In this document: one piece after another, positions 1 to 53,800 of the stretch
Layout: the number at the start of each line of letters is the position of its first letter
Position numbering within the stretch: the first letter of the stretch is position 1
DNA from: Reclinomonas americana ATCC 50394
Lineage: Eukaryota
DNA length: 54,233 nucleotides
Reading direction: 5' to 3'
Assembly (NCBI GenBank): GCA_048213135.1
Contig: PS015119.1
Span: 247,084-301,316 of the forward strand
The notes under the pieces: generated by a model
The model's database searches: none
Seen by the model: the letters and a program-made list of their open reading frames with translations, nothing else
What the model was told of the DNA's origin: nothing
Program-made: the position numbers and the translations under genes

Positions 1-1726
1 TCCATGGGCGGTGCGGCAACAGACCCTCGAAAGCGCCGTGTTTCGGCTTCTTGAAGCTCCACAGCATGGCCAGCGCGTCGTCGGCGTCCTCACCGGCCTC
101 GATCTTGTCCATGGGCAGCACTTTCCTCCAGGAGAAAATCTGTTTCAAGGGTACACATGACGACGGTGAGACCGGACGCGAGAGGGGAAAGTGTAGCACG
201 GCGTACCAAAGGGTAGTAAATGTGAGCCATGATTTCGCACAACTTGCGACCGTCTTCGTCGAGGTACGACTGGAGGAATCGCAAGGTCCTGCTGTTCAGC
301 GAACTGATGACGGCGCTGGTGAACGAGGCGGCATCCGGTGCTGACAGGTACCGAATGCTGAAATTCCACCCGTCCTGCAGCAGCTTGCGGTCCAGAGTGC
401 CCTCAAATATGGTGCCGTGGCCGCCCGAAGTGCTCACAGTAAGCACGCTTCCGACCTCGCTGGCGGAGAACTGGGGCGGGCGCGCCGGGAAACGAGAGGT
501 CAGCAACACTTTGCAGCACATACGCACAGAAGCACACACACAAGTGCACAAACCTTGGCACCGACACCGTACTTGGAGTACATGTGCGAGATGAACAGAA
601 AGTTCTTGTGGCTGTTGAACACTCCCTGGCGGGCAGTCGACGACGACGAGTAGGCGAGGCGGAAGAACGTCCTCATGCGATTGCTGTCCATGCCCACTCC
701 ATTGTCGGTGATGCTAATGATGCCTTGCGGCTCGTCCTCCGATTCCTGCGCAACGTGGTGAGTGTAGTAGCTCCCCCCACGTCGCCGAGACTCAGACACA
801 CACCTCCGCCTCGTCGACCTTCCACAGCAGCTCGACCACCGGTTCCCCGGTCTCCGAGTCCCACACCATGTTCTCGCACGAGTTGTCGATGAACTCGCAC
901 GAGACAAGAACGGGATCGTACTGCAGCAGCCCAGAACCTGCAAGAGCCACACGCCATAAGCACGCAACGCAACGCACACACATGCACACACACACATGCA
1001 CGCACGCACCCATGATCTTGGTGTCGGGTGGCTCGTAGATTGTGTAGTTGCGTGTCACCGAGGCCAGCGACCATTGCTCTCTCACCTCTGCAGCCGGGGA
1101 AAAGAAAATACCGAGCAATCAGTCGACACGCGCGCGCGCGCAACACACCAGCAAGCAGCACATTTCGGATAACGAACCCTCCGAGACATCGTCCGTAAAC
1201 TGCACACAGCAATCCAGTCGCGTGATACGCTCATCGCTGCTGAGCATCTCGTGCGCTTTCTCCTCTGTCAGTGGCGTCTTCAGGTCGTCGACCAGCTGTG
1301 GANNNNNNNNNNNNNNNNNNNNCGCGCGCGCACACGCACAAAATCAATCGCAAGCTGTCAATGTGCGAGAGAGTGAGAGAGAGAGAGAGACACACACGAA
1401 ACATGCACAGCCATGTCAGAGGTAGAAATGTGGGCGAGTTCATCCTGGAAAGCATCGTAAACGAGTTGCACGAGTTCCTCTTGCGGTGCAATGGGCAAAT
1501 CCAAGTGCTTTCCATCCTGCAATCACACACGCACACGAATGCACACACAAACACACAAACACACACACACAGAGAGAGAGAGAGACGCAAAAGCAGCGTG
1601 AGTGCACATGCATTCACGCACGCACACACACAGAGAGACAAACACGTGCACACAATGCATGCACGCAACTGGACAGAGCACGTGGACTGGCGCCTTGGTG
1701 CGTGCAGGGGGTGCAGCCGCGGCCAT
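1..1726 (-). CDS. SMCHD1: SMCHD1-like GHKL ATPase, N-terminal part (spliced; runs off the left edge of the window)
   Basis: Spliced peptide contains YTIYEPPDTKIMGSGLLQY, CEFIDNS (N-box), ITDNGVGM (G1), STARQGVFNSH, SKYGVGAK (G2), SFTSAVISSL..FLQSYL and MAHIYYP. These are colinear with recalled SMCHD1 ATPase motifs (LAELIDNS, DNGRGM, FTRQGDFESDH, SYFGVGGK, SFTAVVITG, LAHIYHY). GT-AG introns; likely ATG at 1726. The hinge domain is not within the window. Confidence 0.68.
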
Positions 1727-1890
1727 CCAAGCACCTCTCTCACACACACTTTCTCGCTCTTGGAGAACTCTTCGACGTAACGCACAATCGCCGGAAGTCC
1801 CGCACGACAAACAACGTCGATTGCCTCGTAACAAACAGTTTTCTCTTTAGTTTTACTATGGTGATTAGGGGAGGTGGTTCCTGGCGTTGC

Positions 1891-4800
1891 TTAGCCGTGG
1901 AGGCGAAGGGTGCCAGAATGATGCGACTGGCCGGCAGTCGTCGGATACGTCGGCTGCAGGAGGAATTCGACGCCATCTCGCTTGGCCAGCTCGCGCCACT
2001 TGCGTCGAGTGCGTGTCCGTCGTGAACAGCCGCACACGTCGGTGACGCGCTGGATGTAGCGCCATATGAGAGGGAGGCCGACAGTGCACACGCCGATAAT
2101 GTACAGGACCAGGCCGGCCACGTCGCGGAAATGACCGCTGACTGCAGCGTCCGAGGTCTCCGACAGCGGGCCGGCGAGGAAGACAGCCGCCTATGTCGAC
2201 CACAGCATGAGAGACGAGTGGAAAGGCAAACGAAAAAAATGCATGCAAACCATCAGTACGAGGATACCGAGCGTCAGGGCCTCGATGATCTGCCGTACGC
2301 GCACACACATATGTGAGCGTAATGATGAGCTGTGAAGCACAGGACTGTGACCGCACGCACATTGTCAATGGGCCGTCGGTAGGGCCGCACAAATACGTGC
2401 AGTGCCAGGAACGCCATCTGTGCGCGCACACACACACCAATAAGCAACAAAATAAATAGCACACGAGGAAGCAAAGTACACCCTGCGACGAACCGACATG
2501 ATGAGCAGAGCAAAGTGCAATGTGCCGAGGTTGCCATTGTGCGACAAGATCAAGAAAGCGGCCACGTACAGCACTGCACACAACGGATGGTGAGCAACGG
2601 CGGAGATCGCGACGAAAAATGACACACACAGAGGCGCTCACCAGGTCGCGCCAACTGCACCGCCTGCCAGTAGTACATGCGGCTCCTGTAGCGATTGGAC
2701 AAGCCGGAGAACAAATGTCGCGCCTGCCCAATGTCCTTCCCATTGTCCGAGTCACCGTCGCCGTCGCCGAGTGTCGTATCTGCGACGCTCGACAACTGTG
2801 GGTGGCCCCCGTGGACACTGCGAGACGATGACAGTCACACGTCAATAGATCGCAGAGTAACACCAGCAAAAAAAAACTCGAAAAACATGCGAAACCTCTG
2901 CAGCGTGTGAGAGCTGGAGCCGGCGTGCGACGCAGAGAGCGACGCGTGCGACTGGTCCTCGTCGTTTGCCGCCGCACTTGCCTGCACTTAATTCGCCGTG
3001 AGTGACAACATACAAGGCACAAACACACACAGATAATCACAGCGCGCCGCACCGATAATCGATGCTCGTTGTTCGACGCCGGCGGCGACGCAGTCGTCTG
3101 CATCGGTTGCAAGGCAATCATACTGGTGTGAGCGCTCTTGGCAGTGCGCTGACGAGCCAGTCGTCGCCGATGCCACCACATGGCGATTCCGAGTGCTGGC
3201 GGCGTCAGGCACAACACCGCAGACAAGAGGCCAATCAGAGGCTCGAGTGCCGCGTGCAAGCGACAAGTATCGGTGGCCGATCCCTGCAGTTAATTTCCGT
3301 CAGACCAAGCGCACGCAATCAGCATGCGCTGCAGCACGTACCTCGATACAGCCAGTGCACTGCATGGACGGAATCAGAATGTTGAACGTGCCGAGATCGC
3401 CGACTTTGACGCAGTTCCAGAAGGAGAACGACTCGAACAGCAAGCTGCGCACATGTAAATAGGCGAGAATATGCGTGCTAAGACTTGTGTGTGAGAATGA
3501 CTCACCTCCAGAACACGCCAGTCGCCAGCATGACTCTGCACACGATGCAATCGGGGTCAGAACGACATGGTGATACAATTTGACTGAACACGGCAGGAAT
3601 GAACGCACGAGGATCGAGCATAGCGCGACACGTTGGAGGTTTGCACAAACTTGCGTACGACCAACCACACACGAGCCTTCCAGATATTGGTGCGCTCGAT
3701 TCGTATCCGCGCACGGTTGTCGGGGTGCATGTGATTGCCTGTGCGGAGCGCGAGTGAGCATCGGTACAGCGAGCACAACATCAGCAAGGCAAGCAGTGCG
3801 CAACTGTGTAGCGACGGTGGGCCAGAACCCGGATCCATACCAGACATCGGCAGCAGTGCCTCGCTCAGTGCTCCGGAATCCAGCGACTTGGAATGATGCG
3901 CTGCAGACAGGCGATTCCGCTCCAGGCCACCAAACAATGACAATGGCCCGTGATGCAACGGCCCGCCAGGCAAGTAGTCACGAAGCTCTGGCCAGATGCA
4001 GGCCAGCAGCACCGAAATGGAACGTTGCAGTGCAAAGAGAATCCACGTGCACGCAAAGTAGAGCTGGCCACACCAACGAAACACAATCAGATGAGGTGAC
4101 AAAGACGCACTTATTTCGCCACGTGATGCTCACCAGCGGATGCACAATCAGTGACATCATTTCGCCAAAGCCACTGGTCGGGAACGGACATTTTCCTGTT
4201 GTTCTCACGATGAGGTACTAGGACGCAGCTAGGTGGATTGTGCTCGTTCGTGCAAACCTTGAACCAGTTGGGTGATGGGTGCAAAGTCGAAAAACACCTG
4301 CAACAGGAACAGGACAAAGTGAGAAGGAGATCGAGGAATGGGAGACGCATGGAGAGTCATGAGCGTACCGTCGCCGCCTGAATCGTCGACTGTGGATAGA
4401 AGAGAAGCTGCAGTCCAAAAAGGAGCATTAGCGGTCACAGATGCACACAGAGAGAGCAGAGAATCGCCACGCAACTCCACTGGTCTGCGTGAAAAAGAAG
4501 AGCTGTGCGACAAGTAAACAGAGTTGCGTGAGAACGCCAGCCGGTCTTACTGACATTGACATAGTATTGCTCTGCTTACCATGTAGACCTCGCTGCGGCC
4601 GCGTCCCTGTGACACCACGTGCAAGAAACCAGCCAACATAAACAGCTCCAGAATCATCATGCCTGCGAGTGCCAACGATTAAGGCCAGCGATCACAGAGA
4701 AGGAAGCGGAAGACAAACAAATATCACAAACCAATGACTGACGTGTTGACACCCGGACATTCGAGGCAGACGTGCTGCCACTCGTGGTAGCCAGCTGCAA

Positions 4801-7800
4801 GCGTCATATTCAGTTAGTAAACTCCTTCATATACAGTGAAGGCACCGCATCAGCCGCCGCACCGGTGCAGAGACCACAGAGTGGTGACTGTGGGTCGCGA
4901 TGCAGCTGAGAGCCACAGAATTGGCCCTGCGCATCAACAGAGAGGGGCACAACATGAGCTCAACTGCCACGCACTGTGAGGGACGTTACATATTCTCACC
5001 AGCGCCACGGTGGATCCCGATGACAACGTCTGCGTGCCGACAATCAAACGGAGAGTCGAAACGTCGCTGAACGTGGTATCCGAGAAGCAGAAATTGTACG
5101 GACATCGAACGGTGGACACCACGTTGTCGACGACAACAGGCCAATAATCGTTGTTCACCTGTTGAAAGGACGTGTATGTGAGTGAGGAGCGAGTGGGAGG
5201 AGCACAATCACCGCACGCTGTCGCAACTGTGACGGCGCCATTGCCCGGGCAATCGAGATTGTCGTTTCGTGCGCACTGCTGGCAGGGATGGCCCGGAATC
5301 AAGCCAAAAGTGCCAAGCGGGCACGACAGACATTGCTCGCCGTAATAGCCGAAACCAATCTGCACGAGCGATGCAGCAGGGAGGAGGTGAGAGTGCGCAG
5401 CGACAGCTTTTGCGCACAAGCAGAGGCAACAAACCGGGCAAGACTGCAGCATCACTGTCTGCGTCGTTGGCGACGACGTGAACTGTGTGGACGACGAGCC
5501 CACTTGCACAACAACCGACTGTCCGAAACCACCCACTGGGACCACCGTGGCATTCACCACGCCATTCTGCACAGCCGATTAGCGAAAGGGACGGAACTCT
5601 TCTCCTCTTCCCCGCGCCACTCACCTCCGTCGCGTAAAGTGTCGTGTTTGTGATGCAGCCGGAACCCGTACAGGTGACGATGACCGGGAATTGACCCAAC
5701 GACGTGATGAGGTTACCGAACACGTCGCGAACACCAATGTCAAACTGCACGCCAATGCCTGGTGGCGACGACGGTGCGGCGCGCGGTTCACGAGGATCAG
5801 AGCGCGCCGACAGACCGCCTGCAACATGTGCAGTGAGATGCCAGACAATCATCGCCACGAGTCATTTTTTGCACAAAAACAATCACGCACCACCGAGCAC
5901 TGAAGTCGACAAGACGTCGACCGCGTAGGGCGAGGAGGCAAAGTTGTCGCCGTACGAGTATGCAACGTTGTTGGACCACAACAAGCACGATTCCCACGAC
6001 AATGCCGAGCGATTGACTCCAGGGGCTAAGCGCATAACAAGCATGTTAGTACCGAGCGCATGCACACAAGGCAAGTGCTCCAACAGACCGTAAATCTGGT
6101 TGTTGCAGAGCAAGTGGATACCAGGCTGATCGACCTCTACCGGCGACGGGATGGTGTACTCGCGACAAGATGACGCAACCAGAGCGGCGTCCGTGAGTGA
6201 CGACGGACGAGACGCGCAAATCCACGCCGACATGGTGCTCCAACAATTACCCAACGACTGACCAATGTCGCTCGACGAGCCTACGCAGAGAAAGACACAC
6301 AAGAGAAAGTCAAATGCGATGCTTCCCTCCCCACGAGTCGCTGCCAGCTGCGTGCATACCACTGATGAACATTCCGCCGCCACCTATCGCAGCAACCATG
6401 AGTGCACGAGTAAGTGAGCGGGCAGCTGGAAGAGAAACACACGCACCTTGCATGGCCGCTGCATTGCCGCCCAGTGGCATTGTCTGGTTGGTGTACGCAA
6501 TGTTGCCGATGACTTGCACGCCGTCGCCGAATCGAAGAGGATTGCAGTACACGGGAGGAATGTCGGCGGCACGTGGATGCGCATGTAGTGGTGGTGCTGA
6601 ATCGCGACGTCGGACTGAACGAAGCGGATTCTGATTGCTGGCCAACGCCAAACTGTCCACGTACAAGCCTGGTGCACAAAAGAGAGAATGATATGAGCCG
6701 AAACAAATAATGCAGAAGTCATCATCGCGTGCACTAGGGTACAGACCGCCACCCAATGTGGCCACATTCTGCTGCAATGTAGTGCTACTCAAATCCAGTA
6801 CGCCGTTTTCGATACCGAGGAAGATTGCTCCACCTGCCGAAGAGTGTGAGTGAATCGCGATAGAATTAGTGTCCGTGAAGAACAACGCACCGCGCGCAAT
6901 AGCAGTGTTGTTGGCGATCTGTTGTTCTCCACAGGTGAGCACAACGACTACAGTTGAAAGTAAAAAGGCAACAACACTGCATCGCAGACAAACCAGTGTG
7001 TTGTCGATGAAGAGCGACGACTCGGCAGCCACGTAGATTGCTCCTGAGTTGAGTAACGCGGGTGAGAACACGCGACAAGAATCCATGAGATAACGACCGG
7101 CGACAAAACCTGCGTCTGCAGACGCTACGCTGTACATGATGGAAGAGTACGACACGTACACGTTGAGACCGAAGAGACCGCTCATGTACACTGCGAGTGC
7201 GTGTGAGGAAAATGAACACAGCTACAAACCCTGCAATAGTACGCACAAGCGCCTCCCTGTGACATGCCACCACAGAGTAAGCACACCAACACATAATCTA
7301 TCCGATAATTGCAACAGATTCTTTTCGCAACTGTCACTGCTTGACCACCAGCGAGATACGACTCGACAATGTGCAGTTGCCCCGTGTCAGTCACGTACAC
7401 TAAGCCACCTGCAACGCGCAGCACACACACACACAGCAATATCAGCAGGCTAGCACATCAAATACGCGAGAAGAAGGGAAGAAATGGAACCATTGGCTGC
7501 GCTGGAGCTGTACAAGTCGCACTGCTCAATGGTCACGGTGGCAGACTCGGCACAGCGTACAGAGCCACCATCCTGGGTGGCAACGTTGTTGTAGAGGCGC
7601 GTGCTGACGATGGCCACCGTGGCGTAGTCGCCAATAACCACACCGCCACCATGCGTCGCTGCGAGACATAGGTGGTGCGTGCCGTCAGTCGCAAATCGCA
7701 GCACACACAAACTGAGTTCATCCATCACGCACCATTGTTGGCGGTGATCACAGAGTTGCTGAGGATGCTGATCGTGGCACCCTGCAGAGCACACACGGCT

Positions 7801-10800: not shown

Positions 10801-13800
10801 ATTGTGCCGCCCTCGCAATTAGAAACACTGGGCGTGAAACCATCACCAGGCACCGTGGTCGAGTTTGCCACGGTGCCGGATGCATTAACGATGTTGCTCG
10901 AAAAAGTACAGTCGGTGATGCTGACGGGGGCGGAAACAGACTGCGAGGTGGACGTGAACAAGTACAAGCCGGAGCCACCATTGAAGTTGCCGTTGTTGTT
11001 GCCATACTGTGCGTGCATCATGCAGCGCCGTGTGAGAGCAAGGCTAGACATGCGACACAGTACGGAGCACAATACCAACCGTCGTCGTTATGGTGTTGTT
11101 CGTGACGATCGCAGCATTCAGAATAAACGTGCAACCGCTGACTTGCACCGGCATGGATACTGTGCCTTCGCCGTACTGCAATGACAGCACCAAATAGTGA
11201 GGCATTTGGTTGGAGACAAGCGCATACAACAACGTCACCAGAGCGAGGAAAATCACGGTGCCACCTGCGCGGTTACTTAGGTGAGCAAGAGCGACGCTGA
11301 AACACAACAAAATCAAGTCCACACCGTTGTTGTTCGACGGATAATTCGTTGTCAGAGACTGAATGGCCGTATTGTTTTGCTGCACGAAAACACAAGCACA
11401 TCATCAGCACGGAATACACGCGAGAGCGCGCTCGGGCGAGTCACAAGACGCACCACAAGCACGACGTTTCCCGCAAAGTATCCATCCGTGACATTGAGAC
11501 CCATGTTGGTGACTCCTTGGCCTGCACGTCAAAAGAGAGACAGTGTCACCAGCCGCGACACTTCCATAACGTCAATCAGCACGTACCAATTGTGTAGAAC
11601 ATGAAACCGCCACCTACATCACACAGAACTAGTTGTGAGGGCCACGACAACACGACTGAAGCAAGCAGCTTGCCAAGCATCTTCGTCTCACCGTTTGCGT
11701 TGTTGTTGCCAGCTGCAGCATCGAATCAGCAGTCAGTCAGTCAGGGCACACATTGGCAACACGGAAAGAAGTGAGCTGTATACGCAGCAGGTGTACACAT
11801 TGTTGGCGACCACAACAGAGTCGACAAGCTGCACCGACGACAAGGTAATCTGGCCTTGCGAGTTGCCATTCTGCGCGATATTGCCTGCAACAGTTTCCCA
11901 GTGGTGAACAAGTGGACATCGAACCATATCGAGCTGTCAAGCAACAAACCGAAGAAAACACCGGAGCCGCCAATCGTGTTCAACCCAGCGGGAATTCCAC
12001 CACTGCCCTGGAGATTCCCGTTCGAGACCACGTTCGTGGCCTGCACTTGACACTTGAAGAATACGGAGTTGGAGATGGTCACCGAGCTTTGCGTGTTGCC
12101 GATGAACTGCGAGGATACGCGAGCGTAGAGGAAGCCACCACCAGCCAGATTGGCAGCTTGCGACGTCAGGTACTCGGCAGTCATCAGAAGGTAATTGGCC
12201 TGCACATTGTCCAGTGCGATCGTGGTCTGTGCACTGCCACCCGACGCCAGGGTGTAGGTGCAGATGGAGCCGCCACCTAGTTGCGCCAAGACAAACATGA
12301 GGAGGCTTCTTCTCCATGCGCAGCAGCGGCAGCGGATAACAGCGCACGTACCAACAAAATTGCCGCCTGGGTTGGACTGATACTGGGGCGCCGACGAGTA
12401 GCTGGCGTTGACCGAGTCGCCCGAGAACGAAGTGTTGGTGATCACAAGGCTCGAGCCAGCAGTGCCGAAGCTCGCTTGTTGCGCGAAGACCAGAATCGAA
12501 CCGCCGCCAGAGTTGTTGCCAAAGTCCTGCGCGACACCGTAACTTGCGTCGACTGAGTTCTGCATGAACTGCGAACTCGCGATACTGCGAACCACCAATG
12601 ATTAGCACAGGCCACCAACGCACATATGTGAATGCAAACGAACCGCAGTTGTGTCCATGTGCTCCCGTTGGAGGCCGAAATCATCGCCAGTGCACCGCCT
12701 CCATTCTGAGCATCCATAAAAAAACAAAGAGATGAGTGATCGCACATCCATCTCCACATACAGACTACACACACGCGCACAAAGTGCACACAACAATGTT
12801 GCCACTCGTTTGCGTCGCCGTGTTGTATCTCGCCTGCACCGAATTATTGGAGAATACACAGTTTGTGACCACGGCGGTGGTGTTGATGCTTTGGCTGATG
12901 ACATTGGCTTGCAGGTTGAAAAGCTGCGCGAACAAGTACACAGCTGTGTTCCGGGAACACAATCAGCACCACCGACAAAACAACAACAGTGAGCTGGTGT
13001 GCGTGAGAGACGCACCTGCACCGCCATTGTCGTTCGCACTTGCATTCACAGTGGCCTCGTTATTATTGGCAGTGACCTGCGCAAGACGTGTCAGTCGAGG
13101 GTAGGCAATGCAGGAGCCGCATGTGCAGCGCACCGAGTTGGCGACGAAGTTCGATTGAGCAAAGTTGGCCACCAGTTTGTTCCCATTGAGAATGCCGTCA
13201 TTCAACACAAAGAGTCCTGCAGCCCGCATGTAAGAGGAAAAAGACGGTGTGTCACTCGGGTTCAGCACCAGCTGCGCTCACCAGCACCACCATTATTGTT
13301 GCTCAGATTGGGAGAGTCGGTCTGGCCCGCAATCACTGTGTTGTTGCTCGTGAACGTGTTGTTGCTGTGCACGGCACGCAACGTGTCAACAATCGCTGGC
13401 TTGCAACTACAGAAAGGGCGACAACGTACTAGAATTGGCTGTTCAACACATCGAGATTGATGGTCGACGACTGGCCGCGAGAGAACACGTAACACGCGCC
13501 ACCTGCCACCACACAATGCACGCAGTCAGCGGTCGGTTGCACGATGCTAGGCACAGAGTGGAAGACGGCAAACCATTGGCGTTGAGAGCATTGTGTGCCA
13601 AGGCGTTGTCGGTGTGTGCCACGTTGTTGGAGAAGGTGCAGTCGGACACGAGCACATTCAGCTCACTGGTGCCGTTGAGAGCCAGCGACACAACGTACAC
13701 TCCACCTGCGAATCGATTCAGTGATCCACCTCCTTCACGCCCCACCTCGCCTCGCCACAACGCAACTACCGCCATTCATGTTTCCACCGGCGTTGTTGTT

Positions 13801-14037
13801 CCGGCCGGGTGCGTAACCGACAGTCGAGTTGTTGACAATTAGCATGTTGTTGTCGAATACGCAGTTCAAGAACGTGACATTCAGCTGCGACGACACGAGG
13901 CCGTTCATCTGCGAGAGCGCGATGTGTTGGTCAAACTGCGCACCGGGAGAGAGAGTGCACACACCACGCAACATTGATCATGACACCGGTGCCACCCTGC
14001 GCGACGACACATCTGTCAGGCACAAGATAACGCGAGA

Positions 14038-14075
<38 letters not shown>

Positions 14076-14884
14076 ACGCAACGTTCTGATTCCACTGATA
14101 CGTCAGCGTCTGGCTCGCATTCACGACCGAGTTGCGAAATGACGAATTTTTGAACATGCCACTGACTGCAGTTGTGTAGCCGTAGGCATTGCCGTACAGG
14201 CCACCGCCTGCCAACACCACACAGATGAGGATCAACCGCAGATACGACAAGAGAGTCTTCCGAGAGTGCTACACACCGCCATCAAGATTGCCTGCGAGCA
14301 AAGGAGAGTGTGAGCGTCGGACACGAACGAGAAGGGAGGGAGCGCAAGAGGTAGCCTCACCACCGATATTCATGGAGCCGGGGGTGGTGCCTGGAACGTA
14401 TACCAAATCACTGTCGAACGATGAGTTGGTGACGTTGATGGAGAGCAGTGCGGGCGTCAGGATGTTGCTGCTTTGGGACACCATGTACACGGAGGCGCCG
14501 CCGTCGAGATTGACGCGCGCTACAGCATTGGCCAAGTGAACCGAGTTGCCGGCGAATTCACATGCGTCAATGCTGACAGTCACGGCAGCCGGATCAGAGG
14601 TGCTCGCCACAACCGCCGTCGAATTCACTGCGCGTCGAGTGAGTACCAACAGCATGATGACAACGCAACGACTACTAGGCGACCCAAACCGTTGTTGGCC
14701 ACCAGGTAAATCGCACCGCCGACAGCGGTCATGCCAAAGTCGCTGGAGACCCAGCTGCCGGTGGCGTCCACCATACTGTTGGTGACCGAAGTATTGACGG
14801 CTGTGAACGACACAGAGGTGATGGCTGTCGGCAACGGCGAAGCCTGCCAATCAAATTCGCTGTCAGTAAGGAGAGACAAAGAGA

Positions 14885-14916
<32 letters not shown>

Positions 14917-16784: not shown

Positions 16785-16824
<40 letters not shown>

Positions 16825-17231
16825 ACGACGTTGACATTGGCGATGGAGAGCAACGGGGTGACACTAGCAGCCGTGGCCGTCCACTCACACGCTCCCACCA
16901 CCTCGCACACAATAGTCACATTGTGCAACGCAGACGAGGCAGTGGCAGTGGAGAGGAGGAGACCGCCGCCCGAGGCCACCGGGAAGAGGCCGGAGAGCAC
17001 TCGCCATTCGACACTGTTCGGCGGTGGCATGGCGCTATTGAGCACCGAGACAGCCGCCGAGGGTGTGCACGCCTGCGCGGGTGTGTCTCCACACGGAGCG
17101 CTGGTGTGCGTGCTGGCGGGGTCGACATAGGTCACCAGTTGTATGGTGGTGGCCGCGGTGCACACACACAACAGCAGCAGCTGCAGCAGCAGAAGCAGGT
17201 GTAATCGGCGGGTGGCCTCCCGCGCCGCCAT
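1891..17231 (-). CDS. Giant cell-surface protein: signal peptide, many GG[A/S/G][I/L/V] + FxxN (Pmp-like beta-helix) repeats, Ig-like segment, Cys-rich region, multi-pass transmembrane C-terminus
   Basis: ATG at 17231 starts MAAREATRRLHLLLLLQLLLLCVCTAA (signal peptide). Many short introns (~55-90 nt) join exons with GGAIY/GGGLY/GGAVF and FSNN/FTGN motifs. These are followed by FDIGVRDVFGN, CLSCPLG..CQQC..LDCPG..NDYWP..CPYNFC..PLCGLC and several hydrophobic helices; stop at 1891. I did not trace every junction; length is a rough estimate of >3000 aa. Confidence 0.75.
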
Positions 17232-28511: not shown

Positions 28512-28591
<80 letters not shown>

Positions 28592-36003: not shown

Positions 36004-39000
36004 CTACCGCTGCTGCACCAACAAATCCCGCGAGGCCAACGCACTCACTCCCTGCGCTCTCAGTCCCTGCTCGTACAACCGGCGGTACTCCAGCACAGTC
36101 TCCCTTTGCAACACCAGCAATCGGTTCTCGTCCAACTCAAACCGCAGAAATCGATCCTCCTCGGTCGAACTCTGGCACGCGGTCTCCACCAAGTCGCGCA
36201 AGTGTCTGCGGCCACGCGCGTGTCAAGGACCGCGTCAATTACACTTGCATTTCGTCACCAGCACTCACCGCAGGTTTCGCAGCTCAACGCCGTTGAACTT
36301 TCGCACTTGTGCGTCTTGCCAGCCTTGGTAGCCAGCATTTTGGTCGTCGACCAGCACGTGTGCAAGAATCACAATCTGTGGACAACGTCAAAGCGCGAGG
36401 CACTGCACGACTCGACGTGGGAATGGCAGCATACCTCCTCGTCGGGATGCTTGGCGAGTGCAGTGACGGCCTTGTGCACGAGTCGACGAGGGGCGTTGTT
36501 GAACTGCACACAAGCACACCACAGAGCGTTGAATAAACCACCTTGAATCTCTCCCAGCACCCGGCACCACTCACCCACTCGTGACCCCACTCGTGAATGT
36601 ACGGCTGCATGTGTAGAATGAGGGCGCAGAGGTCACATGGCAAGACAACATCCACACAAACCTGCACAAAGCGCAGGAATACGAGACCAGCAACAATCTG
36701 TATACTCGACCATCGGTGAGTACTCACAGCAACGATGAATCCATCACTTTGTCCCACACGCAACATAGTAACTCGGTTGCTGCCCGTAAAACGTCGGTGG
36801 CACAAGCACCGGCAGTGGTGCCATCGTCAGTTGCAGGTCGTGTTGCTGTCGACACGACGCAGGGTCAATCTGCTTTCCAACAATACGCCCACAGTGTCAC
36901 ACTCCTCCAGCAAACCTGATGATCGCGCCACACCGACAGCCGGCAAGTCTCTCCCGGCAACTTCATCTGCACCAGGTAGTCGAACTGAACGCGCTCGCCG
37001 GTGGTTTCCAGTTGCGACGAATCGCTTGCTGTGTCACACACAAGTGTCCGTCGGCGCCGCAATACGTGCTCTCTCTCGCACTCCCACGCCAGACGCAACA
37101 TGCACGAAGAGGGACAGAGCCGTCATTTGCCACTTGGGTTCCATCAATGGCCAACAGTACGTCGTTGGTCTGCAGCACACCCTTGGCCGGGCTGAGCGGA
37201 TACACCTCGTTGACGAGGACGCCGGTCTGCGTGCGCGGGCAACGAGGGGAAGAGATTTGCATAAGTGAAGCGAAAGGAGAAGATAAACAAACAGAGAGAG
37301 ACAGAGAGTGAGAGCACGCACTAACACACAGAGGCATGTTGATATTGCGTCAGTGACAGGAAGGCAGAGGAATCGACAAACCAGCATTACTTGGTCACAT
37401 GAACAAACAGAGAGAGAGAGAGAGAGAGAGAGTGAGAAGAAAAGGAGCACAGGCACTCACGTACAGAGACATGTTGATATTGCGCCAGTGACTGACAGCA
37501 ATATGAGAAGACAACAGTTCACGGAATGCGATAGAGAAGAGAAAATATAAACAGAGGCAGCGAGACAGAGAGAGTACGCTCACGCACAGAGACGTGTCGA
37601 CAAAGTAACCCTTAAGAAGAGAGAAAGAGAAGCAAGGGTCAGGCGAAACAGACAACGCACTGCACACCGCTCACCTGTCCGTCTTGCATGCGAAGGAAGG
37701 CGCGCAAGTTGGGATTCTCCAACGCCTGACACAGCAGCCCCAGCGAACAGAACCCATTGAAGCGGCCGTTCTTGGCAACGTCTTGCCTGCAAGGTGGGTC
37801 AGCCACCACCCGCGCACACACGCGCACATGCCTCACGCAACAGGAAATGCCGAATGATGGGCACTGGAATCACCCAGCCAATGTTCTCTGCATCCTGGAG
37901 GTTCTGGAAAGCCACTCCAACGACTTTGCCACCTTGGACAACGGGACCACCGCTGCGTGGACAGGAATTTGTGGTGAGAAGGTAGAAGGCGAAAATGCAC
38001 AGCAGTATGATCGCTTGTACCTGTTGCCTGGATTGATGGCGGCATCGATCTGAATGGCCAGCAGCGTGGCGGCACCTGGAGTTCATGTGAGCAACAACCG
38101 CGACAGCGCAGCGGTCGACTGCCACACACCATGAGCGTAGAGGACTGGTTCCACACGGGAGACCACGCCCTGCGTCACGGACAGCGAGTCGCCACCAGTG
38201 GGGTAGCCAAGAACAACCACTTGATCTTGCAATAGCTGCCGCCATAATCAAGTCAGCAAAGACGACTCGCTCACTCCGAACAGCCTCATGCAAACAGCGA
38301 CTCACAACTCTTCGACAGCTCACTACAGACACACGTACTTTCCAAGCGTTCACTCGGATTATACTGACTGATCAACCCACGGACTNNNNNNNNNNNNNNN
38401 NNNNNNNNNNNNNNNNNNNNNNNNNNNNNNNNNNNNNNNNNNNNNNNNNNNNNNNNNNNNNNNNNNNNNNNNNNNNNNNNNNNNNNNNNNNNNNNNNNNN
38501 NNNNNNNNNNNNNNNNNNNNNNNNNNNNNNNNNNNNNNNNNNNNNNNNNNNNNNNNNNNNNNNNNNNNNNNNNNNNNNNNNNNNNNNNNNNNNNNNNNNN
38601 NNNNNNNNNNNNNNNNNNNNNNNNNNNNNNNNNNNNNNNNNNNNNNNNNNNNNNNNNNNNNNNNNNNNNNNNNNNNNNNNNNNNNNNNNNNNNNNNNNNN
38701 NAGTTTTGGGTCGGGTTGCAGTCGTTTGAGTTTGGAGAATTGCCGGTGAGGAGGAGGCGGGGGGAGGGAGAAGGGGAAGGAGGGAGAATAGAAGCATTGA
38801 GACAAGGAGAAAGGAGAGGGAATGACAGCGAGAAGACAGAGAAGAAAGCAGAGAGAACAGGCGGATCGAGGAGGAGGGAGTCAGACAGGGAGAACGGCAG
38901 AAGGCAGAGAGAAGGACAAGAGAGAAAGATGAGGACGATGAGAGTGAGAGAGAGAGTGAGAGAGACAGCCAGAGACAAAACAGAGAAGGATGCAGTCAGA

Positions 39001-43164: not shown

Positions 43165-43704
43165 TTAGCCCTTGCTCTTGTTGAGTTGGTGCACTGTGTG
43201 CAAAGGAACAATGAGCGCGCGCATGAGAGGCACAGAGAGCGTGTGTGAGAGAGTCAACGCAACAGACAATGAGGATCGGCAGCGACACGCCCTGTAACAG
43301 AAGAGGAAGATGCGGACGGAATGTCAGTGCAAGATGCACACCCCAAATGCATCCACGACACACACTAACCGTCAGCGCGTACGCCGCGACACCAGCCAGC
43401 ACACCGGCCTTGGTCGGCGCCTTGTCGGCAAAGTACAGAGGCTGCACAAGAGAGAGTGTACGAGTGAGTGAGTGGCATGGACATCGCACATCTTTCACGT
43501 CACAGCGCTCCCCTCCTCACAACAACGCATGCACACACGCACACACATGAACACCAGTCATGAACAGACACTCGCACAGACACAGAGAGAGCAACGCACG
43601 CGAGACATGGCACACACACACAGAGACGCATGCAACTGACTCACCGGGTTGTGGTGGCCACCACGAGCAACGACGTTCTTCACGAAGCCAGTCAGGCGAG
43701 GCAT
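43165..43704 (-). CDS. COX7C: Cytochrome c oxidase subunit VIIc (yeast Cox8-type), 62 aa, 4 exons
   Basis: Spliced product MPRLTGFVKNVVARGGHHNP|PLYFADKAPTKAGVLAGVAAYALT|GVSLPILIVL|HQLNKSKG*: presequence, one TM helix and a PxxxVxHQL ending as in COX7C. Confidence 0.75.
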
Positions 43705-44338: not shown

Positions 44339-45368
44339 ATTGCTTCTGGAGCTGTTGGACGCTGCTGCTGCTGCGGTAGTAGTCGTGGTCGTGCTGGTCG
44401 AGGTCGTCGTTGATGCCGTGCTTGAGGCGGCCTTGCCACCTCCAGCCGCCGACGGGCCGTCAAAGTACTTTTTGTAGACGACAAAGTTGTTGGCCTGTGG
44501 CGTGTAGTCGCGCAGTCCGTAGTGCTTGGCGAGGAAACCGAGCAGCTTGTGCGACGGTCGATCGTAGGCCAATTGCGACGGCACCACCTTTTCCTCCTGC
44601 ACACACAACAGCGATGAGCGACGATGATAATGATGGTCGACAAGTACAGACGCACCGCCAACATGAACTCAAACAGCTCCTTGCCGAATCCCTGTCGCTG
44701 GCGAGTCGGATGCACGAAAATGTCCAGCACACACAACGGCGACATCTCCTTGTAGGCACCGGTCTCCAGCTGCGCCACCCCCCACGGTCAGCACCACCGA
44801 CGCCCCAACCCACAGAGAAAGGATCGCGTGCGCAACTCGATGGAACAGCTTCTTGTGGCCGACCTTGAGCAAGCCGACGGCGAGACCATCCTCACAGCCG
44901 AGATACAGGTGCTGGTCGGGATTGTTAATCAGGCGACTGGTGGTGGTGATCACTTGACTCAGTCCTTGTGCCTGCAAATTGCCAAGAGTGAGACAAAATG
45001 AAGGAGGTGTGCGTGTGTAGACAGAGAGAGGGCGCACGCGGACCTCTTGCGAGGCCAGGCCCATGCGATCAATGATCCGACTGAGCGAGTCGAACGCATC
45101 GGATCGTCGCGCTCTCAGTTGCGCAAGTCGATCACCGTCCCATCGCGAAAGCCGCTCCGTAAGCAGACGTTTGCAGTGAGCATCCAGCTGCACAAGAGAG
45201 AGTGACACGAGAGAGAGTCAGATCAAGAGGAGATGTCCCTTTCGCCGAATAACACGCATTCGCAGAGGCGCGATGAGAGGCACACAGAGAATGCGACACA
45301 GGCATAGAGAGAGAGAGAGCACAAAGAGCATGCGGGGAGACAGAGGCAACGCGCGCACACACCTCCAT
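44339..45368 (-). CDS. ATAT1: Alpha-tubulin N-acetyltransferase (MEC-17); 3' end runs into a gap
   Basis: [74 protein letters not shown]. Confidence 0.95.
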
Positions 45369-47825: not shown

Positions 47826-50800
47826 CTATGCTTTGCTGGAGGAGTACCGATGTCGCTGCTGGTACTGGCTGTGAAGATTGCGGAAGATATCCCGGCCGAG
47901 CGGCGACAGCATGAGGTGCAATTGTTGCAACCTGCGAGAGAGCAGGTGAGGTGCAAGTACGTGGGTGGAGAGTGAGGAGTGCATGATGACGCACCCGCTC
48001 TCGTCCGACACATCCATGAGTGCATACGTGCCGAGTGTCATGCGCCGCTTCGCCTCGCCGCCCATGCCATGCTCCTCCAACGTGGTGACATACTTGCCAA
48101 TCAATTGTGGCACGTACAGTCGCAACCAGTTGTTGGTGGCTCGTTGCCGTCCACTCGCTGCGAATAATAATCAGAAACCACACTTATAGAGAGAGAGAGA
48201 GAATTAGGATGATCGCCACTTACCATCGCCACTGGCTTGAGCGGCGGCTGCAGAACGAGACCGTGAATGGTCGTCAACTTGGGCACTGCTGAACGTGCTC
48301 GACACATTCTCCTCCGACGCCAGCTCGTTCATCACCCGCACCACCGCGTCCACGCATTGCAAGTGTACCGCTTCCTGTGTGCGCAAAACATTTGAGCAAC
48401 GAAGCACACACAAACACTCTCTCACATCACCAGCCGCCGCCGACTCAACTGTGCATTCGAACAGTGGACGACCAGCAGCACTTCCACTCATAGGGAAAAC
48501 GCCGACAATCAACACTGCGTGCGAGGTCATGAGCGACGAGAAACATCGTGACACCAGGCGATGTTTGTGCATGCGCAACTCTGCAAGAGTTCCACCAGCA
48601 GACCAATGTTGCTGCTGACAGCGTAGAGACGGTAACGGATCAGCAACATGAGCACTCGTGAGGCCACCTGCAACACTTGCGGGTGGCACAGCAAGCGCAC
48701 AACGCCAGACTTTCGACCAGTCTTGCCCAGCGACGGAGGCGCCACGACTGGAGCACCTGTGCCACACGTGCCAGTGACTGCCACCATCTGCGACTGCAGC
48801 ACGGCTGCCACCTCGGCTGCTGTCACTTGGAATGCCTGTCACAGCAAGGTGAAACAGATTTGAGACTGCTGCATACGTAACAAGAGCAGAGAACGCCCCG
48901 TACCTCTACCCGGCTGATCATGGCACACACGCAGTCGGCGGCCGTCTCGGCGAACGTGGGGAAGTGCGGCGTGCCGGCCAGCAACGCTGTCAGATCAACT
49001 ACATGAGACAGAATCGCCGCCTGCCGATGTCGCAGTATACGCATCGACAGCGATGCTGTTGAAATACGTGGAGGTCAGTGAGAGAGGCACGTAAACAGGA
49101 CTGCACTCGGCGACGTGTTGCGCAACAGTTTGCCGTCTGCAACACAGTGACCAGGAGATGCATGCCCAAGAAGAGTGCCGACTGCTCGCGCTGGCTGCGT
49201 GCACTGTCGGCACCGCGTTGCAGCAACGCAAGCGCCGACGAGTACAGCTGAACGAGAGTTTCGGGTCGCGCTGCTCGCACAATCACTCCGATGCACTCGT
49301 CGAGTTGTGCACAGTTGGGCCACACAGACTTGAGCCACAGCACAAAGGCGGCCACGCGACTGTGCACACTGAGTGGAACGGCGGGCGTCACTTGCGGCAG
49401 CGTATCGCACAGCGAGAACAGCAGGCGCAGCTCCGCTGCCACCGCCTCCTGCGAGTCATGCGATGATGAGCACGAGCATGGCCCTTCTTATGTACATACA
49501 AACGAAAGCGACAGAACTGCAGCTCCGTGCGCCTGAGCATGCCGCGCTAGTGTGCCCACCGTCGAGTGCAGCACACGACCGAGATGGCCGACAATGGGGA
49601 ACGCATCCGCTCGTGACAACTGTGGCGAGGACAGCGCGCACTGCAGCAACGAGTCCAGCACAGAGGACAGGCCGTGCGGTGGCCCCATATCCTCCTTGTT
49701 CTTCTTCTTCTTTTTCTTGTCCTTTTTCTCGTCGACCTCCACGTTGTCGCCCTGTGGGAGCAGACTGACAGTAGCCTCCTGCAATTCGCCAAACTTCTTG
49801 CGCAGCACGTTGTCCCTACTCGAAAGAGACACAATGAACAACGGCATCAACAGCACAAAACGTACACAGCATGCGCCTCCCAACAACACTTACGTGGTGA
49901 ACAGCAGTGGACGGACTCTCACACTCTCCGTAAAGGCGAGCACAATATATCTCGCCAGACGCAGGTCAAAGGACGTTGGCGACCTGTGCATGCATGTCAG
50001 CAGACGCAGAAACTCACAAAGAGGTTTGTCGACAACAACCCACCGGCTTTCCAGCGCTTTGCAAACGGGTTTCACAAAGGCCCTGACGCACTGCTTGGCG
50101 TTCGCCTTGTCCACAAGTGCCTGCTTGTCGTCTCGTCGTCTGTCACCCACTAGGCTGACAAACTCGTGACTGCGCAACGCCAAGAACACGGTAAGTGCGT
50201 GTGTGCGTGGTGGCATGGACGCGCATGCGGGCCAGGAGAACCTCATAGCTCGCACGAAGAACTCCTCTTCTTGCTTCTGGCTTGCCTCATCGTCGGCAAA
50301 CAGCGTGTCGCCCAGTTTCAGCAAATTGACGCGTGTCTGCAGCAGCAATCCGACCGCGCCTCGGTAGGCGACGGCCAGTGTGCCGAGCGCGCCGGATACC
50401 TGCCATGAAGCAAGGCTGGTTGGTGAGAGAGAAAGGGACCCTCCGAAGCTGAAGAGAAGGCACTCACCTCGGGCAAGTGCGGCACAATCGACGCAAGGCA
50501 GATCATGCGCTCCACCAGCAGTCTCCGCAGCGCTTCTTGCTCTTCCTTGTCTTCGTCGATTAGATACGCAGCTGCGTGCACATGCAACGACACGGTTGGT
50601 GCGCTGTCTCCGACTGTCATCAGATTCGCACGCAACTGTCTCCAAGTGCCGAGGGCAGCAGACCGGGTTCAACGCCAACGGCCGTCGGCAGCATCGAAAC
50701 AAATCGCGCCAAGCCAACAATCCGCTGAACAAAACTGTGTTGCGTCGACGATGCCGCGTGCAGTGCCTGGCGACAAAACTTGAAAACGGGCGACTTTTTC

Positions 50801-53800
50801 GCCGAGGCCTTGCCTTTCAAGAGACTACCGTCGAGCTCCTCGTGCTGCAATCACATACAATGAGTCGCGTCTCGCGTGGCACGTTACGAGGGGAAAACAC
50901 AATACGCACCGCCGCGAGCGTATCTTCCAGGATCGACTCTGTTGCGTGCACAAGTCGTCGCAAGAGGCAAGCTGATCACACAGTTGTCAGCACAGTGCGC
51001 ACACGTGCACACACACATATTTTAAGCAGCGAGTCACCTCGGAAAGCCGGCACATCCAGCAGAACCGAGTCGCGCACGAGGTGTTGCGCCACCGCCACAC
51101 ATTGCAGGCTCGCGTTCGACCCCGCGGCTTCGAATGCGTGAATCAGAAAGTCGGCCAAGTGGCCGCATGCTTCCTCTTTCAGATACCAGCTGCGCAGAGT
51201 GGATGAGCGCCCAATGCTTCAGTACACACAGAACAAGAAAGCGATATACACACCACAGCGTTGGTGAAAAGTGCGAGATGCAATGCCACAAGGCCGTACA
51301 AAAGACCGCCTCGTCAGTCACAACATCGACGCACTCGTCCCACGGTTCACTAGGAGTGGCGGGATGCAGTGACCAGTGAGTGCACGAGCATGGACTTGCG
51401 CGCAACAAGACAACAGAGGGGATTCGCTCACCTGGCAAGAATGTCGCTCAAAGTTGTCTGCGCCACCACCACAAGAAGCATCAGCAAGAGAGAACAGACG
51501 CGCGACGGAAACGTGTGGAGAGAGACGCAACTCGCTGCTTGACATACTTCCACACAATGCTGAGCAGCTTATTGATCTCCTTGGTGGACGCCGACGACGA
51601 GAAACCAATCGACTCCCACTGAGCCATGGAATCTGGAGCGCGGCAAAGCGAGTCAGTGAACGGACCAAGCTGCCTCAGGAACCACCTCATACAACCCTTA
51701 CCGTCAAACTGCGCCGAAAAGGTCGCGTGTTCCGCATTGCAGTGCAGCATGTGAATACGCTGGAGGCATATACGACACTGCACAAAACAAACAAATACGC
51801 AAGAGAGGTGACACGTGAGTATATCACAGAAGGCGACATACGCTTGACGGAAGACTACTGCCGTCGCACCAGTGCAAGCTGGGCACGGTAGTCGTCGCGG
51901 ACGGCGGCAATCTTACGCAGGCGACGCAAGTACGCGACCAGGCTTTCGCCTGGCACGACTCTGTCGACCAACTCCGACACTCTGTCGGGCGGGAAGCCGG
52001 CGTGATTGCGAAGTGTGAGACGCGTCTCCTGACACACTGCGGCACAGTCGATGCCAGCATACATGGCCTCCAGCAACGCAGCGTACACGTATCCGGCGCT
52101 GACCAGACAAAGAAAATAAACACGCCACGTAAGAAATGGACAAGAGGTGAAGGATCGTCGAGATCATGATCACACAGACCACGACTCTTCGACACTCGAT
52201 GCCACCTGGTCCAGCCCAATCAGTGCGGGTCTCAGGAACTGTGCTCCCATCACCAGTTAGCACAACGCACAGTGGCAAGAGCCACCACAGAAGCACTCAG
52301 CACGCACCTCCATGAGGAACATGTTGCAGCACTCGGCGGCCGCATCGACATTCGACTCGTCGACACGAACAGCGAAAAAGAGCGACTGCGCCAGTGCCAC
52401 TGCGCCGTTGACAACAATAGCCCGCGACTGACTGGTCGCATCTGCTCAACTCAGCTCGTTAGGGTCGACCACCACGTGACGACCGATCAGGAGATAAACA
52501 AACCACGACCGAACGGATCCACCAGGAACGGCAGCACCGTGTCCTGCAGCAGCTGCACGAGACGCCAGCTGAATGGAATCACTTGACCCGACGGCAGCGC
52601 ATCAACGGCCGACAACAATCTGCGTGTAGCACGATCAGCAAATATCATACAAAAACATGAAAGCGTGCATCGCATCGACGCACGTTTGTTGCACTTGCTT
52701 GTGGCGCAGCAGCACCGACAGACCGGCAGGTCGCTTCCCTCGACCAACAAAGGCCGCCAGATTCGCCAGCATGGTCTCACACAGCACATCGAGCTGGCGC
52801 AGCTTGTTGTACACTTGCAGACATGTCACCATAAAGTCGGCGGCACCCTGCAGCACGTGCTCAAGCGCAAAGATGCGCTCCAGCAGCGCATCCATGAACG
52901 GCTGCACCAGTCGGTGACTGAGATTGAGCAACCAGCGCGCCACGCGGAAAACAGCGTCGTGTTGCTGCGCAGAAGCATCGCATCACATAATGTCAGCTGC
53001 AGTGAAAAACAGGAGGCGAGGGAGAGGAGAGCGGCGCAACAATGGGCGAGGCAACGCAGGTGGACAAGCAGAGTGCCAGTCGGTTCCGCGCCAGCTCGTG
53101 CTTGGCGTCGGTTCGTGTGTCACGGTACACGTCGAAACGGTGCATCACCTCGAGCAGCGCGGCAAGAGCGCCAGCTCCACTTGCGACCTTGTCCTCATCT
53201 GCAGCACAGCAGTGAGTCGCAGCACAGCGAGATGAGGGTGAGAGCAGTGGCAAGCCCGGCGTACCATGGATGCGAATCATGTCGATCAGTGGCAGAGAGA
53301 GTTCGTGAAAGAACGCAAACATTTCGTAGTGCTGATCCCCTGAAGTGCTCACAGCGCCCAGCGGTCGCTTCCGACTACCGCTTGCAGTAGCCGGCGGTGG
53401 CTCTGCAGCTAAATCAGCAGAGGCCGACGCACTGCCACCGAGACTCCGGCCTGGTGTCAGGGCTTGTCGCTGAACGGCCTCACAGTACCAGGTCAACAGC
53501 GCCGGCATCACCGCCAGGGCGGCGGCTGTATGTGGGAGGAAACTTAGCAGCGGCACGAGAACAGAAATGTGACGTCATCCGCACCTTGTCGCTGGTCGCC
53601 GGCAGCACACATGGCAAACAACCGCACAAACAGCTGACTCTGGAAGCTGGCAAGCGACTGACCCTTGTACTGCACCACAGTACCCGTTTTGGCGCCCTTG
53701 CCCTTTTTCCTGCACAACAGGAATCAGCCTCTGGAACCACTCGGGAAAAGCACGCACGCCGCACGCAACTTGGGTGGCTCGCCGACGGTTTCCGCAGCCG

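Follow-up and report, generated by a model that had tools for sequence, protein, structure and literature searches.

In a 54,233-nucleotide (nt) stretch of DNA from Reclinomonas americana ATCC 50394 (contig PS015119.1), referred to below as the window, the hexamer GTTGCG is a genuine and frequent 5′ splice site, found as a donor far above chance. The introns that begin with it are, judging from their sequences, ordinary major-spliceosome (U2-type GT-AG) introns that are like the others apart from the donor. GUUGCG(U/C) would thus be a second class of GT-AG donor, with which U1 small nuclear RNA (snRNA) most likely pairs in a register shifted by one base; we put the probability of this reading at about 60%. 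We infer the agency of U1 and its register from what can be read in the window, namely the class itself, its cut, its loss of G at position −1, and the displacement of its consensus. All counts come from this window, and the evidence consists of DNA, reading frames, and protein homologues. The window is eukaryotic nuclear DNA with 55% G+C and 11 runs of N. Genes are densely packed with many short introns each, and the minus strand carries most of them.

The abundance of the hexamer should be noted. An earlier note on this DNA had listed 25 GTTGCG donors, and the hexamers were all located at the listed coordinates (21 of 21 on the minus strand and 4 of 4 on the plus strand). On the minus strand, hexamer start + 5 is the upper end of the intron; hexamer 37094, for example, corresponds to intron end 37099. 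In total, the minus strand of the window has 47 copies of GTTGCG and the plus strand 25. Relative to the local gene strand, 48 copies are sense and 24 are antisense, the first-order Markov (dinucleotide) expectation being about 27 per strand. Listed or predicted donors account for 29 of the 48 sense copies, and the other 19 are at background level. The heptamer GTTGCGT occurs 26 times in the sense direction and 7 times in the antisense direction.

Introns were modeled with a Viterbi gene finder whose codon log-odds model was trained on the window; it accepts introns of 35 to 400 nt and checks for stops in split codons. In a first donor-blind run, where GT was the sole requirement, GTTGCG was the top hexamer with 7 of 56 introns, against a base rate of 72 among 7215 GT hexamers on both strands (1.0%; binomial p = 1.5e-6). 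A second run, again donor-blind but with the codon and 3′ models in their final form, placed GTTGCG (10 of 156) second to GTGCGT with 13; on the antisense strand it produced 66 spurious introns, and GTTGCG was outside their eight commonest donors. The gene finder with learned donor scores gave GTTGCG for 17 of 115 donors. Position-by-position donor scoring gives the hexamer almost no weight, 0.7 being expected among 123 donors where 25 are seen, and it is thus commoner than a position-independent model predicts. The description of GTTGCG as a major donor class in the earlier note also holds, as about 15 to 20% of the introns modeled in the window belong to it.

The list of 25 sites stood in large part. 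We accept 22 of them as plausible, and the sites at 1664, 16821, and 19871 are without support. Among the 22, four are fixed by homologues, one is supported in its length, and the remainder rest on frames and intron signals. Rival readings exist at 4470, 50631, and 53764. The hexamers at 3799 and 5222 lie in introns with open read-through, which are not strictly needed, and the gene finder read through 43258. Three GTTGCG donors were found beyond the list, at hexamers 37094, 49121, and 53035. For the statistics below, a gene-finder set (16 GTTGCG donors and 98 others) and a curated set (25 and 98), which leans slightly towards the class, were used.

The reading frame cannot separate a cut at N^GTTGCG from one at NGTT^GCG (a caret marks the cut), and homologues were therefore used to place it. 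Every frame-consistent pair of cuts within 12 bases of the model was scored against relatives, with no dinucleotide rule. For the Deg2/9-like protease gene, ten full-length relatives were taken from a representative search that matched only a 40-residue exon, and they were then aligned along the whole gene. This gene and a GH125 (alpha-mannosidase-like) gene are both recognizable and homologue-matched, and an alpha-tubulin N-acetyltransferase (ATAT1) gene shows exon-wise matches to solved structures. At four introns in these genes, homologues place the cut before GT, where the earlier note had put it.

32274..32343, minus strand: 70-nt GH125 intron, GTTGCGT, at VWE^GKYE; homologues and gene finder.
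36698..36764, minus strand: 67-nt Deg2/9-like protease intron, GTTGCGT, at PSYY^IVAG; 10 homologues.
37787..37841, minus strand: 55-nt Deg2/9-like protease intron, GTTGCGT, at HFL^QD; 10 homologues.
44770..44836, minus strand: 67-nt ATAT1 intron, GTTGCGC, at KKLFHR^LETG; exon spacing in solved chains.

At 37841, the GT..AG cut scores 1602 and ranks first of 207 cut pairs, whereas the GTT^GCG cut scores 1499 and ranks 20th. The corresponding values at 36764 are 635 (first of 199) and 533 (16th). At 32343, the GT..AG cut scores 267 and ranks second of 205 (top score 269), and the version with exonic GTT scores 238 and ranks 15th. The GTT^GCG reading costs about one gap penalty per homologue, and three normal junctions of the Deg gene, scanned as controls, behave alike. 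In the GH125 gene, a tblastn alignment of P0002 places ...LWE (residue 170) and GKYELD (starting at residue 171) on the two sides of the junction with no gap. In the two ATAT1 exons flanking 44836, F74 and T3 fall on residues 98 and 103 of 4yrh (4 residues between in both), and the anchors in 3vwd are residues 109 and 116 (6 between in both). Since the exon spacing equals that of the solved chains, an extra Val from GTT would break it. Of the motifs that the earlier note had used to place the cut, VWE^GKYE, PSYY^IVAG, and HFL^QD proved sound, whereas the HQL junction is read through by the gene finder and lies in a gene without a family match.

These junctions bear on the rival in which the cut is GTT^GCG...AG, that is, GC-AG introns following an invariant exonic GTT. 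GC-AG introns exist in most eukaryotes, and the frame alone does not tell the two cuts apart. However, this cut adds one residue relative to every homologue at 37841, 36764, and 32343, with the loss in score given above, and breaks the ATAT1 spacing. Furthermore, GCGTGC is unlike the local donor consensus, and the class occurs in all three phases, so that the exonic GTT would have to be kept against differing coding constraints. The GC-AG cut is extremely unlikely.

Homologues are less informative elsewhere. At 18445, in a carbon-nitrogen hydrolase gene, four homologues give the GT..AG length the best score (105, versus 81 with an additional residue and 85 with one removed), which supports the intron length and not its exact position. 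The junction at 37099 and the normal junction at 36915 lie in a poorly conserved loop and are not fixed by the ten Deg homologues. Alignments of the GH125 exons with solved structures end before the junction, and an ATAT1 homologue search with the open frame of one short exon gave no match. All 25 modeled introns start with GT and end with AG (CAG in 22, TAG in two, and AAG in one). A slide of both ends by one base (TT...GN) was also considered; it gives the same or nearly the same protein but no constant 3′ end, whereas GT...AG is found in 25 of 25, and it was rejected.

The usual donors in the window read G^GT-(G/T)-Y-G-T. As the earlier note had described, they carry G at +5 (82 of 98) and C or T at +4 (72 of 98); G is found at −1 in 66, G at +3 in 59, and T at +6 in 68 of the 98. 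In GTTGCG(T/C), positions +4 to +6 are GCG and match the normal +3 to +5, and a slide of one base restores the consensus. GTTGCG thus reproduces the local consensus G^GTGCGT one base further into the intron, in agreement with the earlier note. The base at +7 of the GTTGCG donors is T in 15, C in 7, A in two, and G in one, resembling the normal +6 (T 68, C 14, A 11, and G 5), and this T/C preference is confined to the sense strand.

The position −1 differs sharply between the two classes. At the 25 listed sites it is A in 14, T in five, C in five, and G in one, and the site with G is 25152, the only one that the earlier note had named. The tie between GTTGCG and a base other than G at −1, likewise proposed there, was borne out: in the curated set, G precedes 1 of 25 GTTGCG donors but 66 of the 98 other donors (p = 3.6e-9), and in 1 of 16 and 65 of 98 in the gene-finder set (p = 5.8e-6). 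In the curated set, A is found at −1 in 13 of 25 GTTGCG donors versus 27 of 98 at the normal −2 (p = 0.03). Exons ending with A are followed by 13 shifted and 7 normal donors, and those ending with G by 1 and 66.

Apart from the donor, the introns of the two groups are alike. A branch-like CTNAY motif lies within the last 45 nt of 20 of 25 GTTGCG introns and of 79 of 98 others, the median lengths are 70 and 67.5 nt (Mann-Whitney p = 0.48), and GTTGCG introns are found in all three phases. Across the whole window, the branch-like motif is CTSAY, 10 to 30 nt before CAG. U12-type introns carry the donor RTATCCTT and the branch motif TCCTTAAC. They were considered and ruled out, as the donors here read GTTGCG and the branch-like motifs CTSAY. 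The recurrence of one exact hexamer might also be expected from an introner-like family, in which recently spread, related introns share the donor by descent. Local alignment scores between introns speak against it, with medians of 6.5 among the variants, 6.0 among normal introns, and 6.0 between the groups (maxima 13.5, 16, and 19). The lengths and branch motifs are those of other introns, and nothing is shared beyond the donor; the probability of common descent is close to negligible.

In the shifted register, the +1G would take the place of the exonic −1G, the +3U that of the +2U, and the +4 to +7 bases (GCGU) that of +3 to +6. The pairing with U1 would move by one base, with +1G on C9, +3U on A7, and +6G on C4, and with −1A on U10 when present. 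Cleavage would still occur before GU, the catalytic core picking the GU that adjoins the shifted helix, and U6 would probably accommodate the extra base afterwards. This register puts +1G on C9 and needs U at +3 to pair with A7; position −1 would face U10 and should favor A.

One alternative to the shifted register is a bulge, in which +1G remains on C8 and +2U on A7, one U at +2 or +3 bulges out, and pairing resumes at GCGU. Passages of PMC4856993 and PMC9311317 report both registers, the one-base shift and the bulge at +3 or +2, for human U1, and the legend of Figure 1C in PMC4856993 treats the bulge at +3 (or +2) as established for human 5′ splice sites. The UU pair in GUUGCG allows either U to bulge. 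In addition, a single donor in the phosphoacetylglucosamine mutase (AGM1) gene, with A before GCGT and G at −1, resembles the bulge type.

29714..29788, plus strand: 75-nt AGM1 intron, G^GTAGCGT with G at −1, from the gene finder; a single case that may be a true bulge.

However, the bulge leaves C9 free for −1G, and the 67% preference for −1G would be expected to persist or grow, whereas G is seen in 1 of 25. A bulge would also tolerate any inserted base, but T is found there 25 times and A once. The sense and antisense counts of the other insertions are 3 and 0 for GTAGCGT, 6 and 6 for GTCGCGT, and 5 and 6 for GTGGCGT. The near loss of −1G and the enrichment of −1A thus favor the shifted over the bulged register, a choice that the earlier note had not made, and we consider the bulge unlikely as the rule for the class.

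Several points weigh against pairing of U1 in the shifted register, or against the class on which it is built. With the canonical U1 5′ end AUACUUACCUG, the mean predicted duplex energy is −1.3 kcal/mol for the GTTGCG class and −5.6 kcal/mol for normal donors, values that assume a canonical U1 in this organism; canonical U1 thus gives the class almost no predicted stability in any register. The second normal donor is GTGAGT, and its shifted counterpart, GTTGAGT, is not used (GTTGAG occurs 6 times in sense and 12 times in antisense, and GTTGAGT once and twice), although canonical U1 would pair better with GTTGAGT than with GTTGCGT. When the depletion of −1G is measured against an unconstrained position, the normal −2, it is not significant, at 1 of 25 versus 17 of 98 (p = 0.12). 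The gene finder picked only 15 of the 25 listed sites. The curated set includes nine hand-set acceptors, namely those of eight unchosen introns and a shorter acceptor for 14082, and three competing predictions (4480, 53757, and 32016) were removed from it. All of the support comes from one 54-kilobase (kb) window. Finally, a strict open-frame test asked for a branch-plus-acceptor module, for a frame that soon meets a stop when read through, and for 35 or more open codons to each side of the intron. It separated sense from antisense copies of GTGCGT (20 of 72 and 1 of 38 passed) but not those of GTTGCG (7 of 48 and 2 of 24; p = 0.7).

The strict test is weak for GTTGCG because exons are often shorter than 35 codons and because read-through frames stay open long in G+C-rich DNA. 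Indeed, the read-through criterion rejects 32343 (open for 43 codons) and 44836 (open for 55), both of which are among the four homologue-verified sites. The outcome means that frames alone do not prove most of the sites. It also lends some weight to the view that the class is largely an artefact, in which GTTGCG simply encodes residue pairs such as Val-Ala or Leu-Arg close to frame changes, and splicing uses canonical donors nearby. The 19 sense copies that are not donors are compatible with this view, as is the presence of an in-frame GTNNG within 30 nt at 10 of 25 sites, with real rivals at 53764 and 4470. On the other hand, 15 of the 25 sites have no in-frame alternative, and among the alternatives that exist just two are consensus-like. 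Homologues fix four junctions, the donor-blind runs pick GTTGCG 6 to 12 times above its base rate, and the T/C preference at +7 is seen on the sense strand only. We therefore regard an artefact as very unlikely.

The poor pairing with canonical U1 leads to another alternative, a dedicated or retuned snRNA. Either a U1 variant would match GUUGCG, or positions 5 and 6 of U1 would pair with GC, so that GCGU becomes the anchor; changes in U6, U1C, Luc7, or Prp8 might accompany this. Besides the very poor canonical pairing, it would account for the observation that only GCG is tolerated after GTT, and the preference of normal donors for C or T at +4 (72 of 98) is explicable by G at position 5 of U1. 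The +4 position of normal donors is A in only 22 of 98, unlike the A preferred by canonical U1 and U6. The 5′ end of U1 is among the most conserved RNA sequences, which counts against a retuned U1. A search of the window with Rfam found no snRNA gene: there were 0 matches at the gathering score, and those with E values up to 1 were only microsatellite-driven microRNA (miRNA) look-alikes. Variant U1 genes exist in humans, according to parts of PMC3561869 and PMC10870369. The alternative also overlaps with the shifted-register reading, as a retuned U1 could still use two registers. Taken as a separate explanation, we find it improbable. Nevertheless, the poor canonical pairing, the unused GTTGAGT, and the C or T at +4 together hint that the reader of +3 and +4 favors G and C, and the simplest idea for this preference, at which the data only hint, is a changed U1 base around position 5.

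A broader proposal can be made tentatively. The 5′ splice-site anchor may have moved to the intronic GCGU, perhaps by way of a U1 that pairs with G and C through its positions 5 and 6 (which would also account for C or T at +4), with cleavage independent of the U1 register; two registers would then be used genome-wide at about 4 to 5 to 1, and the last base of the exon would choose between them (G for the normal, A mostly for the shifted). We consider this possible, though doubtful.

Shifted and bulged sites are known from humans. Roca and Krainer reportedly found in 2009 that U1 reads atypical human 5′ splice sites in a +1 shifted register, and a 2012 study by Roca et al. is said to have described human donors in which the nucleotide at +3 (or +2) bulges out. 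The class described here is like the shifted human sites in that cleavage at GU is kept, the consensus lies one base downstream, −1G is not needed, and canonical pairing is poor. Unlike such sites, which are rare in humans, it comprises 15 to 20% of modeled introns with one strict motif, GUUGCG, and it is known from sequence alone. In addition, the displaced consensus is the organism's own GUGCGU and not GUAAGU, and shifted GUGAGU is unused. Human sites with a bulge at +3 or +2 similarly have an extra U after GU, after which the consensus resumes; they differ in that the bulge keeps +1G on C8 and −1G usable, whereas −1G is nearly absent here. The ‘Shifted +1’ test oligonucleotide given in a passage of PMC4856993 is ACA^GUCAAGUAUA.

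A lineage-wide departure of 5′ splice sites from U1 pairing is also known in the tunicate Fritillaria borealis. Parts of PMC13326754 report genome-wide non-canonical splicing with a changed U2AF and N6-methyladenosine (m6A) on U1 and U6; 95% of its introns escape GT/AG, and the authors raise a possible shifted register. The change there is more radical, as GT-AG is kept here and only the register of the extended consensus differs. In the searchable literature, GTTGCG or GUUGCG was not found as a splice signal, and the papers containing GTTGCG, GUUGCG, GTTGCGT, or GUUGCGU as a whole word were not on splicing. Papers that mention a shifted register together with splice sites and snRNA deal, judging from their titles or abstracts, with human or other animal genes and with tunicate genomes.

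The two donor classes suggest that the spliceosome of this organism routinely reads the start signal in two alignments. If this is true, a genome in which about one sixth of introns use the shifted register would be a natural system for an old question in splicing, that of the U1 helix in relation to the bond that is cut, and would also bear on how U6 copes with an extra base. There is a practical consequence as well. Since donor scoring by position gives GTTGCG almost no weight, gene predictors would mis-set or miss many introns of this genome, and our own gene finder read through several GTTGCG introns.

The remaining GTTGCG introns that were predicted or judged plausible are as follows.

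7257..7331, minus strand: 75-nt intron (or 110 nt, to 7222) in a Pmp-like repeat gene, GTTGCGA; gene finder, phase 0; branch-like CTTAC 21 nt before CAG.
13706..13766, minus strand: 61-nt intron in a Pmp-like repeat gene, GTTGCGT; gene finder.
13909..13972, minus strand: 64-nt intron (or 37 nt, to 13936), GTTGCGT; hand-set, frames compatible.
13997..14082, minus strand: 86-nt intron with an internal (GA)n run, GTTGCGT; donor by gene finder; CTGAC 19 nt before CAG.
15960..16036, minus strand: 77-nt intron in a Pmp-like repeat gene, GTTGCGC; gene finder.
18387..18445, minus strand: 59-nt carbon-nitrogen hydrolase intron, GTTGCGC; gene finder; Pfam CN_hydrolase matches the downstream exon.
21681..21742, plus strand: 62-nt intron, GTTGCGT; gene finder; CTGAC 17 nt before CAG.
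24928..25000, plus strand: 73-nt intron, GTTGCGT; hand-set, frames compatible.
25152..25222, plus strand: 71-nt intron, the sole member with −1G, GTTGCGT; gene finder, phase 0.
32026..32095, minus strand: 70-nt GH125 intron, GTTGCGG; CTCAC 17 nt before TAG.
37029..37099, minus strand: 71-nt Deg-gene intron beyond the earlier list (hexamer 37094), GTTGCGT; gene finder.
48515..48579, minus strand: 65-nt intron in a large gene without a family match, GTTGCGC; gene finder.
49056..49126, minus strand: 71-nt intron beyond the earlier list (hexamer 49121), GTTGCGC; gene finder; CTCAC and CTGAC 19–23 nt before CAG.
51458..51531, minus strand: 74-nt intron, GTTGCGT; gene finder, phase 0; CTGAT 23 nt before CAG.
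52965..53040, minus strand: 76-nt intron beyond the earlier list (hexamer 53035), GTTGCGC; gene finder.

The phase 1 donor at 13766 has 70 codons open upstream, a read-through stop after 10, and 86 open once spliced; the values are 186, 19, and 150 at 16036 (phase 1), 86, 17, and 102 at 48579 (phase 1), 178, 15, and 109 at 53040 (phase 0), and 67, 8, and 45 at 25152. At 21681 (phase 2), 178 codons are open upstream and read-through stops after 16. At 13972, the gene finder has an alternative, a single 147-nt intron at 13936-14082. The 24-nt stretch at 13973-13996 on the minus strand (GGTGVMIN) is a possible micro-exon of the Pmp-like repeat gene, with GTTGCG-donor introns on both sides. The intron at 24928 would link the coiled-coil part of KNL1/Spc7 to its C-terminal part, whereas in the gene-finder model one gene ends at 25003 and another begins at 25011; Pfam gave nothing for the exons downstream of 24928..25000. 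At 32095, a frame change is required between ...VEQETG and the stretch running to the homologue-matched CGLxxSx[FY]RPSDD, and an in-frame GTGCCA 24 nt downstream is a possible alternative donor.

Other sites are candidates, ambiguous, or unsupported.

3739..3804, minus strand: candidate 66-nt intron, GTTGCGC; CTCAC 16 nt before CAG.
4408..4475, minus strand: ambiguous candidate intron of 68 nt (or 86 nt, to 4390), GTTGCGT; hand-set.
5159..5227, minus strand: candidate 69-nt intron, GTTGCGA; CTCAC 20–24 nt before CAG.
43194..43263, minus strand: candidate 70-nt intron before the last small exon (HQLNKSKG-stop), GTTGCGT; hand-set; CTCAT 18 or 30 nt before CAG.
50551..50636, minus strand: ambiguous candidate intron, GTTGCGT; ends with AAG at 50551 in the gene-finder model, alternatively with a CAG some 65 nt in.
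53710..53769, minus strand: ambiguous candidate 60-nt intron, GTTGCGT; the gene finder chose an in-frame GTGCGT 12 nt downstream.
1664..1669, minus strand: unsupported hexamer; no acceptor with a branch-like motif in range; unchosen by the gene finder.
16821..16826, minus strand: unsupported hexamer heading a (GT)n run; GTGAGT at 16783 was preferred by the gene finder.
19871..19876, plus strand: unsupported hexamer, already marked ambiguous in the earlier note; the gene finder's introns from it (143 or 344 nt) belong to a weak gene model.

The gene finder did not need 3739..3804, as its length is a multiple of 3 and its read-through is open, and it read through 5159..5227, which is in frame and open. 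At 4475, it took GTGGAG 5 nt upstream instead, with the acceptor at 4390. In an earlier run, the bases of 50551..50636 were taken as an exon starting at the acceptor ...GACAG^. The only branch-plus-acceptor module in range of 16821 gives a 140-nt intron. Next to 19871 lies a tandem duplication (19972-20262) with units of 93–106 nt, 1.8 copies, and 82–87% matches. On the minus strand, (GA)n and (GT)n microsatellites at 14040-14075 and 16790-16820 immediately follow GTTGCG donors within the introns. Two predicted donors, at 8782 (minus strand) and 25661 (plus strand), read GTTGCA; they lack G at both +5 and +6, have C or A at −1, and may be relatives of the class.

The other genes identified in the window are listed below.

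KNL1/Spc7 kinetochore gene, and Pex16: assigned with Pfam.
EMG1 gene: recognizable.
Carbon-nitrogen hydrolase gene, and MORC-like ATPase gene: recognizable.
AGM1 gene: family from the protein atlas.

Pfam gave no family for the C-terminal exons of KNL1, the small gene at 43 kb, or the large gene at 47.8-54.2 kb. Metagenome contigs matched with best-segment identities of at most 40% over most of the query (32–44% for longer matches); identities of 51–70% were found only in fragments of up to about 77 residues, and no sister genome for orthologous introns was among them. A cluster of large beta-helix, Pmp-like repeat genes (GGxGxxF/Y... NxT-rich) occupies 4800-17250 on the minus strand and contains seven GTTGCG sites. 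A comparison of these paralogues at the junctions returned self-matches only; they are too divergent to test each other's junctions.

In the AGM1 gene, a 75-nt in-frame intron (30056-30130, plus strand; G^GTGAGTGC...TGCAG) lies between HHYDIG and VYFEPNGH. The gene finder read through it, which indicates that in-frame introns are under-counted. Immediately upstream of the GH125 gene, a 12-nt minisatellite of AGGGGAATGACC spans 33046-33521 with 39.6 copies and 96% matches; the gene finder rendered it as a repetitive GH125 N-terminus, which is probably wrong. The region 26550-28602 has few genes and long dinucleotide arrays (AG, GT, AC, and CA), and it includes an (ACGT)n array at 28316-28394 that gave spurious Rfam miRNA matches.

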